Positions 39,766 through 61,993 of a stretch of DNA of 64,000 bases are shown here, piece by piece (position 1 is the stretch's first letter; each line of letters begins with the position of its first letter). Source of the DNA: Saccostrea echinata (taxonomy: Eukaryota); assembly GCF_033153115.1 (NCBI RefSeq), contig NW_026889753.1, positions 124,001 to 188,000 of the forward strand, given 5' to 3'. Position numbers and translations under genes: made by a program. Below the pieces are notes generated by a model. It was not told the DNA's origin, made no database searches, and worked only from the letters and a program-made list of their open reading frames with translations.

Positions 39766-40469
39766 TTAAATATTCAGATAGATTTTCCCAAAACTTGGCA
39801 TGTATACTGAAGTCAATGTACGTTACATAAATTATAAAATTATAGATTTTTCTATTGTAGTTTTCATACATAAACCTCTTTGTGCAAAAAAGGTGGATTC
39901 TAATGCAACAGTTTTGTAAAATGCACTGATGTATGAGGTAGCTAAACGCGAAAGCGTTTGATTGTGATGTCATAATTGAATGACGCAAAAACACAGCTTT
40001 TCATGACGTATTTCATATAACAAAACTTAACAAAATATGACTAAAATATTGATTGCATTAGAATGAGAAAAAACTATCTTCTTTCTTATTTAACGGTCGC
40101 AAACTGAGTTTTGTTTACCGGCGACTCAAAAGCGGAGCCGGTAAAACGGATATTTGCGACAGTTTAATCAGCATTAATGGTCGCAAATAACAAGTGATAA
40201 GATAGTTATTCCCTAAAATACATGTCGTTTACCTTGCTTTTATTTTGTTATCCGCTTTGTTGAAGGTCACTGCTTCACTGTACCTGCAGTATTATAAAAG
40301 AACGATCGATTTTCTTCATTTTAAATTGTGCACTTATCAGGTAATGCAGGTAGGCGCTATGAAATTTTTTTCAAAAAAATAATTAACCTAAAACTGTCAT
40401 ACTACATATAGCAATACCAATTTTTTGCTGTACATAAATTAATTAAACTAGACAAGAATTAAATACTTA

Positions 40470-43926: not shown

Positions 43927-46900
43927 ATGGGAACAGAGGTATCCAAAGAGCAAAGTGATCAAGTCCTTGTCGACGCCAAAAGTGAATATATTGATGAAGT
44001 CCTACAACAAGAAGACAATAACAGCGATCATGAGAGCGAGGAACATGTTCACGGTAACAGAAAGGGAAAACATTTATGTTACACAGTAGCGAGTTACAAC
44101 CAAAAACCAATTTATAAAATCAATGTTTGAAGAGGTGCAGTTAATATTCTTTCATTTATGAATTTGTTTCTTTTTTTTTTTTAGAATTAAGTGAATTGGA
44201 CAAGCTTGCGCAAACCATAGACCCGAAAAATTATCTCGATGAGTATCCTTTCGAAAATCTCATTTTTGAGGGAGGTGGAGCAAAGGGGATAGCATATCCT
44301 GGAGCATTGAGGGTGAGATATTTGAGATAATTGTTGATTTGTATTTTGTATGATATGAGTACTTTTACGATAATTTTGAACATGTTTTATCATTAAATAT
44401 TAGGAGAGTGCAATATGGTAGCAAAACCTAAGTTAATTATTAACCTGCATAAATTAGCTGTCCTGACTAATCCTTATTTTCTTTGATAAAAAATCGATTT
44501 CCTAAATTTAAGGAGATTCATTGCCAATTATTCTAGATTTCTTGCGATATGTCTCACGCAGTGTCGTTTTTATGTAGGTAAATAATACGTAATGATATGC
44601 GATTTCTTTCCATCAATAGAAGCGATAAAAGCCATATGAATAATATAAAAAAAATTATGTACAGTCTCAAAATTTAAAAAAAAAATTAAGAGAACTACCA
44701 CTTAACAAAATGAATAATATTTCACTTATCAAGATGTTTATGTTTTATACTTTCTCAGGTGCTAAAAAAATCAAATTTATTTTATGCATTTATATATATT
44801 ATTGATGTTTTAAATCAATGTAAGATTAATATTGCTAGGAAACTTATTCCTGAATTCGTATTCAGCATTCTGTTATTGCATGATAAAATACTAATATTTT
44901 ATTAATAGTAATGTACAATAAAATCAATTAATGAGTCAAGTGTTATAAATTGTTAGGTTTTTTACCAAAATCACTTCGATGTATTTATATTTTATTCTTA
45001 TATTTACTCAGGCATTAGAGGAAGTTGGTATTATGACAAGGATAAAACGATTTGCTGGTACAAGTGTTGGCTCCATAACAGCAACAATGGCTGCGCTTGG
45101 TTACAAAAGCACTGAAATTAGAGAAGTCATGTCGACAGATTTTTCAAAGTATTATGGTACTGTTCTAAATTATTGTTTTGAAAATTGATTGATTGATTTT
45201 GTTTAACGCCGAGTCAGCAATATTTCAGCCATATTTCGGCGGTGTTTTGATAATTGAAAAAAGGGTACTTGCAATGTTTTTGAATTACCTGCTTACTGTA
45301 GAATTTCCAACTCAAATTGACTGATACAAACTTTTGATTCTTATTTTGCAAACTTATCCAAAACAAATTGTTATGACGTTTCATGTCAAAAAGTGTCTCT
45401 GCGTGTTTGAGAGTCCTGTATTTTTATGTTGAAAGATGCTAGGTTTGGAAAATTCAGTATCATTCCAAATCTCCTCTGGTATTTGGGATGGCAACCACTT
45501 CATACCCTGTATGATTACATCGGAGAAATAGTTGAAAAGAAACTTGGTGATAAGGACGCTACGTTTGAACAAGTAATTCTTTCGTTATTTTGGTACATTT
45601 CAATTCAGGAATTTTTGCAAAATTTATGCTTCAAAAAATTTTTTTTTTTCCACAACACAATGTATATGTGAAATAAAGAATGGCAACATAAATGCGTTAG
45701 TTTTTCAGTTATCAATATAATAAAATTTAATTGGTTTGTATTGACTATTCATTTTTCTTCTACATTGATTTCTTCAGCTTTACAAGGAGTTGGGGAAGGA
45801 GTTGTGCATTGTTGCAACAAATCTCAATGATATGGAAGAGACTTATTTTCATCCTAAAACTACACCCAAAATGCCACTCAGGAAGGCGGTTCGTATGTCT
45901 ATAAGCCTCCCAGGTTAGTTTCTGCAGCCGTTATGTTACATTGAAATATGTTCAATTTTATGTACTTTGTTGTACAGATAATTTTCATATTTGGCAGGTA
46001 TAATGCAGCCTATCAAACATACTGATTTTGGAGTGGAGAGCATGTATGTGGATGGTGGTGTACTTATCAACTACCCAATAGAGTGTTACGATGGTGAGTT
46101 GAAACATGCTACCAACATTTCTGTAAGTAGAATTATTAGGTCATGATCAACACCAAGCTAGTTACTATTTCAGTTTAGAAACAATCGGTCAAAATAAATG
46201 ATATAAATACTGATAGAGACAGTGAATATTCTTTTACAAATTTCAAATAGCCGAATATGATTGATTTTCTATTATTTGTCTTTAGTAGGTACTTTTCAAA
46301 ATCAAAAAAATCTCATACCTCAAAAAAAGATGCGTTTCATCTATCTATACAGTTCTATAAAGGCATTTTTATTTAAATTATTTTTTATCTCTTCAAAAGA
46401 TTCTTAAATGTAGAACTTTTGCTTTATTTTGTAAATCATTTATCTTTCTAAAGTGTAACTCGGGACACCCTCTTCATTAAAAATCCACTGATTACATTTA
46501 TTGGCTTTCATCACCATATGATCGAGTATATCTTTTTTTTTTATCTCTTTTCTTTAAGAGCCATCAATTTTCCCTCATTTCAGGGTGGTGGCTTTCAATG
46601 AAAAAGGAGGATTCGTTTTTCGAAAGATTACAACCTTTAGAGAAACTCCCCTTTATAATGGATAGAAAAAACAGATTTGCTCGTGATGAGGCTCAGTCGT
46701 CCAAATCGCTGGGATTCATACTGGTAAAAAATAGAAATTATTGTAATTTGAAGTAACAACTTTTCAATATAAACTGACGGGAGCCTTTTGTTTTCTTTTT
46801 ATTTCATCAAATGTTTTTGTTTCAGTATTCTGAGGATGAGATTGAGTCTTTTAAGTCAACGTTTGAGTCCAGAAGGAAAACAAAACTACAGTTCCCAGAC

Positions 46901-49900
46901 ACACCAATGGGAAGGTAAATTATCCTTTGTACACCTTTGTAGGTGTTCAATTTGAAAACTTTGTTACCCGAATTCTCTACTATCCAATGTAGAGCAATAA
47001 GTTTTATCATTACACATACACTATTTGACATTTTAGAAGAGAAAATCGAGGAACATATTTCTGTATTTGACGACAGTTGAATTTGGACCCTCTATCATGT
47101 TAATTTTTCATGTTTAGATCTAAGATTCATTGGAATATAAATAGCTATCATCCATATGCAAATTAAAGCAATTGAAATTAAATAAAGGCAAATTGCGTGC
47201 TGTATTAAAATACGTGTATGTATGTCAGTAGCTATCCTACTTTTAGCATTGTTTTTATCTTTCATTTTTTATCAAAGGTTTTATTATACATTTCTACAAC
47301 GTAAAAGAGCCAAGAACAGGATTTTTGCGTTAGACCTCATGTGTTTTGCCTTCAAATGCTAAATTTTATTAGAAATCTTAATAAATTTTCATTTGCAACT
47401 GGCATTTCCATTTCATTTTTTCATTTTTTATAAAACAAATTATTTCAGTAGTCATCATGTTCCACAGAATATAGATCCAATAGCATGTGCATTGTATTTC
47501 TATTAAGCAACTTAAAACAAAAATAACAATTTTAAAACAATATCCCAATGCAATTGATTTGTTTGTTTAACGTCTATGATAAGAATTTTTTACTCATATT
47601 GAGACGCCACTACCTGCCAGTGGAGGACTACAAATCTAGACCTGTATTCGACACTTACGGCCTTTGAGCAGTGGGGGATCTTTTTCGTGCCAGCACCTAT
47701 TGCAACACTGAACCGCGATTTATAAGGTCTCATCCGAAGGAATGGTCTCCATATCTCGCTGTAGGATTTGAACCTGCAACGTAAGGATCAAATCCTTACT
47801 CCACGACTCTTGAGCGAAAGCTCTTACCACTGCGCCACGCAGGCGACCCAATCCAACTGATTGCATTAGCATCGAAAATTTAAGATTATCAAAATTAACG
47901 AAAACATCTAGTAATTTTCGTTTTTGTTTTTATTTAAATGAAATATGAAGATAACAAACAGTTATCAATCTCAGAAGTCCAATGAAACATTGCAAATTAG
48001 GACCTCTAAAAATATCAGCGATGGGATCAGGTACCATGGAGGAATAAGCATTCCCTGTCGACCGATCATAGCCGCCATGTACTCCTTGTCATGATCGGAA
48101 AAACGGAAAAATCCTAGACAATTCAGTGTGTAAATTAAATAATGACCTACAAATTTGTATGAAAAAATATTTTTAGATGATATTTTATTGTAAATTTAAT
48201 TTATGAAAGCTTGAGACACATTGTTTAAATGCAGATATATATGACTTTAAATTGCCATTCTTTCAGTGTTGTGGGTAGTATTAATAATTTATTTACAAGT
48301 CAGAATTTTGTATTTGCAATATTTGATTGTTTCCCCAATGTTTATTTCGAATGGGCTAAATAATTTATAATGTACAGAAATATGGTATTGCATTTAAATT
48401 ATCATTATCATGTATTTTTCATCTATTACCACACTTTTTAAGATGTTCCTTTCATTAAAACATTTTTGAAATTAAAGAAAGGCAACACAGAAAACGAAAG
48501 ACGAAAAGAAGTTGAATAAAGAACACCAATGTGTGAGAACTTCAGTTAGCAATTTTTTAAAGGTATATGTATTCAATATTAGAAGTGTGTTCAAATCTTT
48601 GAAAAGTATAATTTGAGTTAGATTCAAAGGGTTAATTCTAGTAACTATGTTTCCACACTTCTAGTTAAAGAATAAAAATTGTTAGTAGGAAAAAATCATG
48701 AATAAATGTTTCTTTGTGTTTTTATATATGTTTAGACCATATAATTTTTTGCAACACACAGAAGTACGTTTTTAATTTCTATTTGGGGGGGGGGGGGGGG
48801 GTTACCGAAAATATTCGAGCATTTAATAACTTTCTGTGTATATATTCGTTTCTTCACAGATACTGCAAAAGAATAACCTGGACAAAGATGAATTCATCAA
48901 CAGAGAGGAACTAGAGAACACCATAAAAAGTGTTCGTACAGCATTTGTATTACTTAAAAGATATTTAGAATAGCCTCTTTCTATCTATCTGAAATAACAT
49001 CATTTGTAATTCTAACATGTTTCCTTTCAGGAGGAGCTTACTGACTGTGACAAGAAACGTCTGTTTGGGAAGAATGTATCTGTTGACGAAGTGATGGCGA
49101 AACTAGACAAGGATGGAAATGGAAAGGTTCTACTTTCCTTAATAATTAAAGCCTAATTATTTACTTTTTCAGAAGAAGCTTGTCGTAAATCTTATAATCA
49201 ACATCAATTCTTGAAATCTTAGAGATTTTTATTTCTTTTTGGGGGTACTAGATCAGTTATGAAGAGTTAGTTTCATTCATTGAAGAAACAGGGATCTCAG
49301 TGGTTCACAGAAGATTAGGGTTTTGTAGACAACAAGTGAATACACTACTTTCTTTACTACAAACCCTCTACAATACGATGTCACTGAATATTGTGCGGAT
49401 ATCAGTCAGCGTAAGTTGTAGTTAAATATGGATTAAACTAAATGGATTAAATATTGATTAACAGAGGTATAGTTCTTGATATAATTTCCCCTTAAATAAG
49501 TTTGAGTTTAATTTTCTTCTTCTTTATTAAAAACGTAAACACTGTCTTATTATTATTATTATTTTTTATTTTTTTTTTTTTTTTTTTTGCAAAATATTTT
49601 TTTTTCTTTTGTTGGTATACATGTACGTAAGGGATTCTAGCTTACCTGTAAAAATGACAAAAATTGTTTTATTATAGGCTGCTGATATGTCACGTACAGT
49701 TGGCTTGAACTCGCATTATATAGGAACCCTTACATTTGATTATACCAAAGAGGATGCAGATTTCGTTGAACAGGTAATAAAACCTACGAATATAGTTCAG
49801 TGCTTTATCAGAATACACTGAGAAACCATTTCTGATGTACGGTTTTATTGATAATCAAAGGGTTAGTCATGGCTACAAGGTGTTTTGTTACATACATGCA

Positions 49901-50124
49901 TTAATTTGAGAGGGAGAGAGGGAGGGGGGCATGTGACCTTTGTCCGATATCGGTCTTTTGTTCGAAAATGAATAGATTCATCTTAGGAGCTAAAGAGATG
50001 TATTTATTTTCAGGAGAGTCATAATACCACTATGGCATTCTTGAAGAATTTCGTGGCAAAACTAAAGATTGAAAGAAAGGCCAAAGCTCCTGTCATAAGC
50101 ACGAAGAATGCGGTGGATGACTGA
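43927..50124 (+). CDS. Patatin-like phospholipase (ExoU/VipD-like motifs) with two EF-hands and a predicted N-myristoylation site; 14 exons, 538 aa
   Basis: GT-AG exons 43927-44053, 44185-44312, 45012-45156, 45436-45572, 45778-45913, 45998-46093, 46584-46723, 46826-46914, 48478-48562, 48860-48931, 49031-49126, 49252-49410, 49678-49773 and 50014-50124 total 1617 nt in one open frame. Motifs: MGTEVSK; FENLIFEGGGAKGIAYPGAL (oxyanion loop); FAGTSVGS (catalytic Ser); AVRMSISLPG; YVDGGVLINYP (catalytic Asp); EF loops NLDKDEFINREE and DKDGNGKISYEE. Confidence 0.92.
47552..47848 (-). mobile_element. tRNA-derived SINE (related subfamily) in patatin intron 8
   Basis: Minus-strand head GTGGCGCAGTGGTAAGAGC...GGTTCAAATCC, core CTTCGGATGAGACCTTATAAATCGCGG, tail AAACAAACAAATCAA. 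Confidence 0.75.
47940..48170 (-). mobile_element. Penelope-like element 3'-terminal fragment
   Basis: Similar to the terminal part of the PLE at 8900-9030 (GGGATCAGGT.CC, AATTTGTATGAAA). Confidence 0.55.
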
Positions 50125-59604: not shown

Positions 59605-59705
59605 ATATGATCATATTCTTAATAGAAATTGAAACGGAACCACTAGGTTTAAAACAAAAAGATGGTGATGTTGAAATTTATACCTTTCCCGATCTAAATA
59701 AATCT

Positions 59706-61993
59706 ATTGGCAAATAGTTCGCAGGTTACTGAAGGGTTCTAAGCCATCACACTCTGTTCCATCTCTAAAAGAAGATAATGCCTATGTATTTACAGATGAA
59801 GGGAAATGTGAATTACTGAATGCTTATTTTTGTAAAGTTTCTTCTAATGATAACATAGATAAAGACCTTCCCGAATTCGAAACAAGGACAGAGGCCAAAC
59901 TTGACAATACCACAATAGACGAAAATGAAATTATGGATATTATCGAAATTTTAGATTCTAAAAAAGCCTCCGGTCCCGACAATTTTAGTCATATTTTAAT
60001 AAAAGAAATAAGTAATGAAATTGCAATCCCTCTAAAAATTCTGTTCAATAAATCTCTGAAAACTGGGAAATTTCCATGTGTTTGGAAACATGCTAATGTT
60101 ATTCCTGTCTTTAAAACGGGAGAGAAATCAAACCCATCAAACTACAGACCAATTTCCTTGTTGAGTTGTATGGGGAAAATCCTTGAAAGAGTAATGTTTA
60201 AATACATCTATAACCATTTAGTATCACATAAACTGTTATATAACCTACAAGCTGGATTTATGCGTAGACATTCAACAGTCACCCAGTTAATAGAAATTTA
60301 TCTTAACATTTGTATTGCTTTAGACAATAAAGAAGTCACCTGCTTTGCTTTTTGTGATATCAGTAAGGCATTCGATACGGTTTGGTTGAAAGGCTTAAAA
60401 TACAAATTAGAAAAATACGGGTTTGTGGGTGAAGTTCTTGCTTGGTTAAATGATTATCTTACTGGTCGATCACAGCAGGTCAAAATCAAATCATCAAGTT
60501 CTTCAGTGGGAAGAACGAAAGCAGGAGTTCCCCAAGGTTCTGTTCTTGGGCCTTTACTTTTTTTAGTATATATAAATGACCTACCATGTGGACTCTCAGG
60601 TCTCTCTAGACTATTTGCAGATGACACATCTGTGTCAAACACATCTAAAAACTTGAAAGACTTAGAAAAACTTACTAACCATGATCTAGAAAAAATTAAC
60701 CAATGGTCAAAAAACTGGCTTGTAAAATTTAATTCTGAAAAAACCAAAATATTAATATTTGGCAGTAGTGAAGATGAAGTATCCAAACTAAGCTTTAAGT
60801 TTGACAGTCAAGAAATCATTCCATCTTCTACTCACTGTCATCTTGGACTTTCGAATTCTGGGAAATGGACAAACCACATTGATAATATTATTAAAAAGGC
60901 TTCAAAAGAAACTGCAGTTCTTAGAAAATTGAAATTATCTTTAAATCGTGATTTCTTAACAAAGATGTATACTACATTCATTAGGCCCTTATTTGAATAT
61001 GCATCAGAAGTATGGGATAATATTTCTGCAGCTGACTGTGAAAGGCTAGAGAAACTTCAATTAGAAGATGCACGTATTGTAACTGGACTTCCTATTTACT
61101 CCCCCCGTGACTCTTTATATCATGAAACAGGATGGGAAACACTTGCTTATAGACGAGAAAAGAGAAAGTTATGTTTAATGTTTAAAATAAAACATGGTCT
61201 CGCGCCAGACTATTTATCGAATCTATTACCTCCTGAAGTCTCAGAAATAACCCAGTATGATTTACGAAATTGTAATAATATTGTTATACCCAAATGTAGA
61301 ACGAACTTATTAAAAAAAATTCCTTCTTTCCATCTACAATATCATTATGGAACGCCTTGCCCTCTGAAATCAGAAACCTTGAAACTGTAAATGCTTTCAA
61401 AAAAAGACTTCTTAAATGTGAATCTCCCCCAAAATATTTTTCTTTTGGTGAAAAGAAAATAAACTCAATTCTAACTAGAATGAGACACAATGTGAGTCTC
61501 CTTAAGTCAGACCTGTTCAAAGTCAGGCTTTCAGATAACACTCATTGTTCTTGTGGATATACCAATGAAAACACTGAACACTTTTTTTTGTATTGTAAGA
61601 ATTATGCTGAAATAAGAGCAGAATTATTTCACACTATAAGAAATAACAAAGGAACAATAGACCTTGACACAATTCTATTTGAGGACTCAAACTTGGGACA
61701 ACAAAATAATATGAACATAGCTAAAGCCGTACACAAATATATTAAAAAATCGAAAAGATTTTTATGAATACCCAGCGTAACCATTCTGTATCTATTACAA
61801 CCCCTTTCCTTTCTTTCTTTGCACCCCCACCCTTTTCTTATTTCCCTGCACTTTTTTTGTATTGTACATTTGTTGGTTGTACATCACGTGTATATGTATA
61901 TGTCATTTTGTTTGTGTTGGAGAGGACAATTCTAAGTTGGTAAAACTTGTGTCCAATCCTATTGATTATGTTTCAATAGAATATGTTTAAATA

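Follow-up and report, generated by a model that had tools for sequence, protein, structure and literature searches.

A 64,000-nucleotide (nt) stretch of the genome of the oyster Saccostrea echinata (contig NW_026889753.1, positions 124,001 to 188,000 of the forward strand; referred to below as the window) contains at 43927-50124 on the + strand a real, transcribed gene for a member of a patatin subfamily with a built-in EF-hand pair. Judged from its sequence, the 538-amino-acid (aa) product is an intact Ser-Asp patatin-fold protein that carries the EF-hand pair in the regulatory segment of the fold and is likely to be myristoyl-anchored. Patatin/PNPLA lipases count as Ca2+-independent enzymes, and in the well-studied cases a separate partner acts as the switch, i.e. 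Rab5, ubiquitin, ABHD5, calmodulin, or cyclic dinucleotides. We consider it probable that the oyster protein is a Ca2+-regulated, acyl-anchored patatin lipase that acts in membrane-lipid signalling or remodelling.

The subfamily is apparently undescribed. No description was found in the open full-text literature searched (subscription papers and supplements lay outside the search), and the available parts of PMC11811501, PMC4987107, PMC12419801, and PMC10574481 make no mention of an EF-patatin family. The pairing of Patatin and EF-hand is already recorded in the automatic Pfam annotation of “uncharacterized proteins”, and what is new is the family with its mechanism, rather than the existence of the gene.

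Gene model and domain anatomy

Fourteen coding exons splice to one 538-aa frame with a single terminal stop, and all 13 introns have GT-AG borders, as proposed in a first-pass annotation made from the letters of the window alone. Transcript data were RNA-type contigs from four public runs (at most three samples, two studies); their RNA status is a guess by a program, the run records do not state RNA, and the contigs carry neither expression level nor tissue. Introns 2-13, i.e. 12 junctions, were seen as GT..AG joints in contigs from all four runs. Intron 1 is missing from the joints listed, where a poly-T stretch was skipped, and is bridged by single contigs in runs X3 and X4. The possibility that the EF exons lie outside the transcript, raised at first pass, is countered by an unbroken chain of joints from the catalytic exons to the EF exons; among the contigs listed, none spans both.

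A 5′-untranslated region (UTR) exon (24101-24273, + strand; 3′ end exact, 5′ end approximate) lies ~19.6 kb upstream of the coding start. It was found as a loose contig end in three of the four runs, which has a single exact match in the window (24245-24268; none of 100 shuffles matched), and a GT donor after 24273 is spliced to 43926. In the spliced leader an in-frame TAA precedes the ATG by two codons; therefore, Met-Gly is the true start and Gly2 is real, and an upstream in-frame ATG that would remove Gly2, the second objection foreseen at first pass, is ruled out. All 538 residues are identical to the RefSeq model P0001 (Saccostrea echinata LOC133178945, “uncharacterized protein”), of which eight extra residues, from a longer exon 4 at its start, have no support from an RNA-type joint. 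Inside the long first intron, at 36600-39800, patches of RNA-type contigs near 36800, 38050, and 39200-39800 may represent repeats or exons of another transcript.

The Pfam scan of P0001 returned the two families expected at first pass, i.e. Patatin (PF01734; 106 bits versus a gathering score of 27.7, residues 68-261) and EF-hand (PF00036, 35.7 bits versus 25.4; PF13405, 26.1 versus 25; PF13499, 29 versus 30, slightly below). The same scan detected no other family, including ankyrin, C2, and cyclic nucleotide (cNMP)-binding domains, and no transmembrane segment was found (highest 19-residue hydropathy 0.98). The full patatin set is present in the spliced frame, consisting of an intact Gly-rich loop (residues 72-77), the GxSxG serine (Ser103), the DGG aspartate (Asp243), strands 5-6, and the C-terminal helix. 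The EF-hand pair comprises two helix-loop-helix motifs with 12-residue loops (EF1, 367-378; EF2, 411-422) and ligands at positions 1, 3, 5, and 12, position 1 of EF1 being Asn.

The AlphaFold2 model is that of the 88%-identical orthologue P0006 (predicted local distance difference test, pLDDT, 88.6; predicted template modelling score, pTM, 0.87), the numbering of which is +5 relative to the window protein. It shows a patatin core, strand 5 at 303-309, a 37-residue stalk helix (335-371) entering EF1, and then EF2; the tail consists of a low-confidence hinge (440-445), a helix (454-473), a strand (482-486), and a long helix (499-531). Coevolution couples F306 with V483 and with T513, suggesting that the tail completes the core sheet; the input comprised 318 sequences (effective number, Neff, 192), and its signal is mostly noise. 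The stretch from strand 5 to the tail measures 133-146 aa in all 52 EF-bearing rows, compared with 5-17 aa in 42 of 44 EF-less rows; the two exceptions, with 37 and 46 residues, are both long-branch rows. The EF module thus constitutes a genuine insertion of ~120 residues within the patatin fold, as supposed at first pass. Its position has to be corrected, as it does not directly follow DGG but begins ~60 residues past it, behind strand 5. The stretch after strand 5 has been termed the “regulatory segment”, and it bears the VipD lid, which opens on Rab5 binding, as well as the dimer helix of iPLA2-beta (available part of a 2026 review, PMC12871566). Mapped onto the predicted model by secondary-structure order, the insert (stalk plus EF pair) is placed at the start of this segment. 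Ca2+ gating of the lipase can reasonably be inferred, and it gains support from this location.

These elements are distributed over the exons, all on the + strand, in the order of the fold. The coding part of exon 1 (43927-44053) specifies the Met-Gly N-myristoylation motif and an acidic N-terminal segment of low confidence (pLDDT <50 at residues 1-7 and 36-43 of the P0006 model). Exon 2 (44185-44312) carries the Gly-rich oxyanion loop at 44271-44288, and exon 3 (45012-45156) the nucleophile elbow, with the Ser103 codon at 45063-45065. Exon 4 (45436-45572) encodes a hydrophobic helix that is conserved in animal members and is a candidate membrane contact. Exon 5 (45778-45913) belongs to the patatin core, and exon 6 (45998-46093) includes the catalytic Asp243 of DGG at 46051-46053. 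The DGWWLS stretch of the D-segment, followed by strand 5, is encoded in exon 7 (46584-46723), while strand 5 ends in exon 8 (46826-46914), where the inserted module begins with a linker and a PDTP motif. The long basic stalk helix into EF1 (335-371 in the P0006 model) is contributed by exon 9 (48478-48562), and the variant EF1 loop, with Asn at its first position, by exon 10 (48860-48931; loop 48875-48910). Exon 11 (49031-49126) encodes the helices between the EF-hands and, from 49106, the first half of the canonical EF2 loop, which ends at 49266 in exon 12 (49252-49410), together with the flexible hinge and the regulatory helix. Strand 6 and the next loop, the positional equivalent of the VipD lid, lie in exon 13 (49678-49773), and the C-terminal patatin helix and the stop in exon 14 (50014-50124).

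Distribution, conservation, and paralogues

With P0001 as the query, 620 of 8000 scored candidates were matches. The named proteins in the best 120 of the 620 belong to molluscs, cnidarians, echinoderms, hemichordates, and one sponge; vertebrates, arthropods, and nematodes are not among them, which is no proof of loss. Among thirty representatives from a profile search were further members from a brachiopod, nemerteans, amphioxus, the diatom Thalassiosira, and the protist Papus, as well as an MMETSP transcript. Moreover, a mostly bacterial protein cluster was flagged with Patatin plus EF domains. The best 80 GTDB loci contained 17 full-length matches and one cut by a contig end, mostly from Myxococcota and Actinomycetota, and at least 120 further proteins are among the matches listed for a bacterial query. 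The bacterial members are intron-less and share ~34% identity with the animal protein. Contamination as their origin was ruled out: they are single open reading frame (ORF) genes, their GC content equals that of the locus (0.52-0.72), and one lies in a complete Cystobacter chromosome. By sequence comparison, the same architecture spans sponge, cnidarians, molluscs, echinoderms, hemichordates, some protists, and some bacteria. The special status that the first-pass annotation had implied for the oyster gene is thus replaced by membership in an old family found across invertebrates, some protists, and bacteria.

With the insert columns excluded, all EF-bearing proteins form one clade, with a Shimodaira-Hasegawa-like approximate likelihood ratio test (SH-aLRT) support of 96 (LG+G4). 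The support was 100 with a mixture model (59 rows) and 90-96 after the addition of divergent members; branch supports are SH-aLRT values only, and the tree rows include no PNPLA sequences. The clade is adjacent to patatins of giant viruses and prokaryotes that lack the EF-hands. The best trees nest the bacterial EF group among eukaryotes, and eukaryote monophyly was not rejected (approximately unbiased test, p-AU 0.33; 35 of 66 rows used). A gene transfer between domains, in either direction, is likely from these trees.

Motifs and ligands were counted in 111 animal and 120 bacterial homologues; as these are related sequences, the counts do not represent independent events. The catalytic serine is present in all 111 animal and all 120 bacterial proteins, and the aspartate in 110 and 120, respectively. 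The DGWWLS motif has a similar distribution (110/111 animal, 120/120 bacterial EF, 0/87 other proteins), and the hydrophobic helix motif of exon 4 is found in 104/111, 32/120, and 0/87. For EF2 the canonical pattern is retained by 103 animal and 77 bacterial proteins, with Glu12 in 117 of the 120 bacterial ones. EF1 departs from the canon mostly at position 1, which is Asn in animals and Glu in bacteria; Glu12 is kept in 104/111 animal and 120/120 bacterial proteins, and Asn or Asp at position 1 in 97/111 animal proteins. The Ca2+ ligands are therefore held, position by position, on both the animal and the bacterial side, suggesting real ion binding.

The N-myristoylation motif, noted at first pass for the oyster protein, turned out to be family-wide in animals and enriched only in eukaryotic members. 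Met-Gly starts occur in 72 of 111 animal proteins, 43 of them with MGxxxS/T, compared with a background of 3% (42 of 1373 internal Met precede Gly); among the bacterial members, 6/120 start with MG and 1/120 with MGxxxS/T. The Papus homologue combines a myristoylation motif with a canonical EF2. Of 67 animal MG-starters, 23 have a Cys at positions 3-8, an indication of a constitutive anchor. The N-terminal extension of the animal homologues is poorly conserved and highly variable in length. The acyl anchor seems to have been added in eukaryotes to an enzyme with EF regulation, and does not look like a part of a recoverin-like switch.

Several unusual proteins were encountered among the homologues. 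Three metagenome/Logan proteins from three 50%-identity clusters (P0297, P0349, and P0369) have a Patched/sterol-sensing membrane domain fused N-terminally to the patatin module. EF matches are present in two of the three, the nucleophile motif is altered in at least two, and the proteins are likely from small eukaryotes; these fusions may indicate a connection with the trafficking of sterols or lipids. In the single metagenomic sequence P0189 the patatin core is joined to an acyl-CoA dehydrogenase, possibly by misassembly. JGI labels several bacterial members, such as P0130, P0145, P0160, and P0173, as “arachidonate 5-lipoxygenase”; the fusion that this label suggests was rejected, as a scan of 25 long or divergent members detected no lipoxygenase domain.

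The gene heads a tandem array of three copies with the same exon structure in the oyster genome, confirming the array suspected at first pass; at least six further loci exist. The two tandem paralogues (L108-L110; G000:C4:201663-208746 and 218245-226872) both show the 14-exon layout. Copy 2, which contains one in-frame stop and corresponds to the RefSeq halves P0003 and P0009, is preceded by its own version of the distant 5′-UTR exon (about 188357-188480); copy 3 is open across exons 2-13. The pairwise ratios of nonsynonymous to synonymous substitution rates (dN/dS) among the tandem copies are 0.12-0.18 overall and 0.07-0.10 for the core. For the EF lobe the values are 0.18-0.66, based on small counts, and the loops are identical save for one Ile/Val exchange. 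The pattern is that of birth-and-death under purifying selection, which, as far as substitution ratios go, is compatible with immunity but not diagnostic of it. Other patatin loci of the genome (C37, C9, C15, and C20:2.41M) were not matched by the P0001 search.

Related lipases and the mode of regulation

The best sequence matches in the PDB were ExoU (1e-13) and VipD (1e-10), both confined to two catalytic blocks, which agrees with the early assignment to an ExoU/VipD-related branch of patatins. The best NCBIfam effector match was VpdC (2e-24), with 85 bits versus a cut-off of 1000, and all NCBIfam effector and defence models scored far below their cut-offs. The ranking of the PDB and NCBIfam matches would agree with a place in the CDD subfamily Pat_ExoU_VipD_like. 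ExoU, VipD, and VpdC share with the oyster protein the Gly loop, GxSxG, and DGG as well as the order of strand 5, regulatory segment, strand 6, lid, and C-terminal helix. However, the oyster protein lacks a Rab5-binding, bridging, or membrane-localisation domain, and its regulatory segment holds the stalk and the EF pair; in contrast to ExoU and VipD, it is encoded by an endogenous, spliced animal gene and has a myristoylation motif. With neither C-terminal cofactor or membrane domains nor full-length similarity, it does not belong to these effectors proper. The FEGGG signature, taken at first pass to be typical of ExoU/VipD, is a feature of the EF-patatin family and of 85 of 87 small stand-alone relatives, whereas ExoU and VipD read LSGGG. 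These small patatins, which have about 280-360 aa, are uncharacterised, and occur in bacteria, archaea, and giant viruses, are the nearest EF-less relatives in the trees. They share the core (up to about 43% identity) and the tail motif, and the best viral fold match has a value of 6e-18, but they have no ~120-aa stalk plus EF insert, no DGWWLS (0/87), and no acylation motif.

In a Foldseek comparison the nearest folds were CapV, VipD, CapE, and PlpD (14-20% identity), with CapV and CapE on top (1e-10 to 6e-9). CapV and CapE, of the cyclic-oligonucleotide-based antiphage signalling system (CBASS), are also patatin lipases switched by second messengers, in their case by cyclic dinucleotides and filament formation. 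Membership among CBASS lipases is not indicated (NCBIfam 22 bits versus a cut-off of 200, and no cyclase among 96 ORFs near bacterial EF members). iPLA2-beta (PNPLA9) has the same fold (1.9e-5), and its Ca2+ response goes through calmodulin; cPLA2-alpha, a known Ca2+-activated intracellular phospholipase A2, has a related fold (1.9e-3). Neither was among the 43 PDB sequence matches at E<=0.01. Unlike these two enzymes, the oyster protein has no ankyrin or C2 domain, and an EF pair within its catalytic fold is the candidate Ca2+ sensor. Plant calcium-dependent protein kinases (CDPKs) combine an N-terminal myristoyl/palmitoyl anchor, a kinase domain, and four C-terminal EF-hands in one chain. 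The layout of the oyster protein resembles that of a CDPK more than that of recoverin, as an analogy of design only: anchor, enzyme, and EF sensor are shared, but the catalytic domains are not homologous.

In the mechanism that we propose, N-myristoylation, in many relatives together with a Cys for palmitate, would tether the enzyme at the cytosolic face of a membrane. Rising Ca2+ would load the canonical EF2 and probably also EF1, and the EF lobe, on its 37-residue stalk from strand 5, would move the regulatory helix, strand 6, and the lid-equivalent loop. The active site might thereby be opened or the catalytic Asp be ordered, so that one chain would do what Rab5, ubiquitin, and dimerisation do for VipD, ExoU, and iPLA2-beta, and a fatty acid and a lysolipid would be released. 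Activation by Ca2+ is favoured over inhibition as the sign of regulation. A more far-reaching version of this proposal can be offered only tentatively, i.e. that a single EF insertion into the regulatory segment founded an ancient class of self-contained Ca2+-activated phospholipases, which extends from sponges to amphioxus and to protists, was exchanged horizontally with myxobacteria/actinobacteria, and serves as a Ca2+-triggered membrane-lipid or cell-death effector. Such a class would represent a third route to Ca2+-dependent intracellular phospholipase A activity, besides C2-containing cPLA2 and calmodulin-regulated iPLA2.

If the enzyme is indeed regulated by Ca2+, the family would be a candidate for the Ca2+-dependent supply of fatty acids and lysolipids in invertebrates and protists. 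A sensor located in the regulatory segment would offer a one-chain model of how this segment gates catalysis. The bacterial members would be rare candidates for Ca2+-regulated enzymes in bacteria, and as single-exon genes (e.g. in Cystobacter fuscus) they make the Ca2+ question directly testable.

Several observations weigh against a Ca2+-activated phospholipase. EF1 is strictly canonical in just 17 of 111 animal proteins (65 of 120 bacterial ones), and the insert is kept with degenerate loops in two Branchiostoma, one Thalassiosira, one MMETSP, and one Saccostrea protein; therefore, Ca2+ binding appears to be dispensable in some branches. Coevolution (318 sequences) yielded no clean contacts between the EF-hands and the active site, and a neutral lipid or a lysolipid is conceivable as the substrate. 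The oyster genome contains two loci of the cPLA2 type (PF01735), which also rules out that the protein is a stand-in for a missing cPLA2. Finally, Ca2+/calmodulin inhibits iPLA2-beta, according to the available part of PMC12871566, so that the sign of regulation is uncertain. The degenerate loops, the non-canonical position 1 of EF1, and the inhibition of iPLA2-beta by calmodulin would also fit a structural or protein-interaction role of the EF pair, or its action as a Ca2+-dependent brake, the lipase being constitutively active or, as in iPLA2-beta or CapV, under the control of a partner or of oligomerisation; that the oligomer-activated CapV and CapE are the top Foldseek matches points in the same direction. 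We nevertheless regard such a role as rather unlikely, because the conservation of ligands in both loops of animal and bacterial proteins is hard to explain without ion binding, and the loops of the three tandem copies are the same save for Ile/Val while the remaining lobe varies.

The first-pass annotation had also envisaged a “membrane-attacking” immune or cell-death effector, which would damage membranes on Ca2+ influx and of which the oyster copies would be immune-type expansions. The kinship with CBASS lipases and secreted effectors, the tandem copies, one of them with an in-frame stop, the at least six further loci, the branches of the oyster subclade, which are longer than that of the conserved mollusc orthologue, and the PglW gene next to one bacterial member are compatible with this view. 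However, the tandem copies are under purifying selection, oysters expand many gene families, and the accessory domains of ExoU and VipD are missing. The bacterial neighbourhoods (96 ORFs at 16 of the 18 loci, two syntenic duplicates having been left out) showed no recurring partner family beyond close relatives and generic ABC ATPases. A full-length defence gene was found at just one of the 16 loci, where PglW, a BREX-related kinase, is divergent from the adjoining actinobacterial EF-patatin (L015:1062-5300, - strand) and is the sole clear defence neighbour; the remaining PADLOC matches are partial (ABC-ATPase, methyltransferase, subtilase), and the PADLOC and NCBIfam defence-lipase scores are weak, far under the cut-offs. 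Gene duplication was the only positive evidence found; a role as toxin or immune weapon is unsupported by these findings, and we judge the immune reading improbable. Still less credit can be given to the recoverin-type switch proposed at first pass, in which Ca2+ would extrude a buried myristoyl group and move the lipase to membranes. The Met-Gly motif does accompany the EF pair in most animal members and in the Papus protein, but bacteria keep the pair without the motif, the extension that would carry the acyl group is highly variable, and the additional Cys in one third of the MG-starters (23/67) speaks for a constitutive anchor. Moreover, recoverin has four EF-hands in a compact neuronal calcium sensor (NCS) domain adjacent to its myristoylated N-terminus, whereas the oyster protein has just two, at residues 367-422, i.e. 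>350 residues from the N-terminus.

Other features of the window

Upstream of the lipase gene and divergent from its 5′-UTR exon, a C1q-domain gene lies at 17905-18625 on the - strand (Pfam C1q 2e-13), with an upstream exon resembling a signal peptide. A 154-aa open frame with a hydrophobic stretch at 11429-11893 (- strand) matches Mab-21_C with E=0.0096 and is possibly a degraded or unrelated gene fragment. A CBASS-like linkage between the lipase and this Mab-21 fragment was considered and rejected, as the match fails the cut-off and is outside the 150 best of 364-453 genomic candidates. Two remnants of reverse transcriptases of the long interspersed nuclear element (LINE) type are located at 59702-61767 and 12885-13767, both on the + strand, with RVT_1 matches of 2e-31 and 6e-15, respectively.

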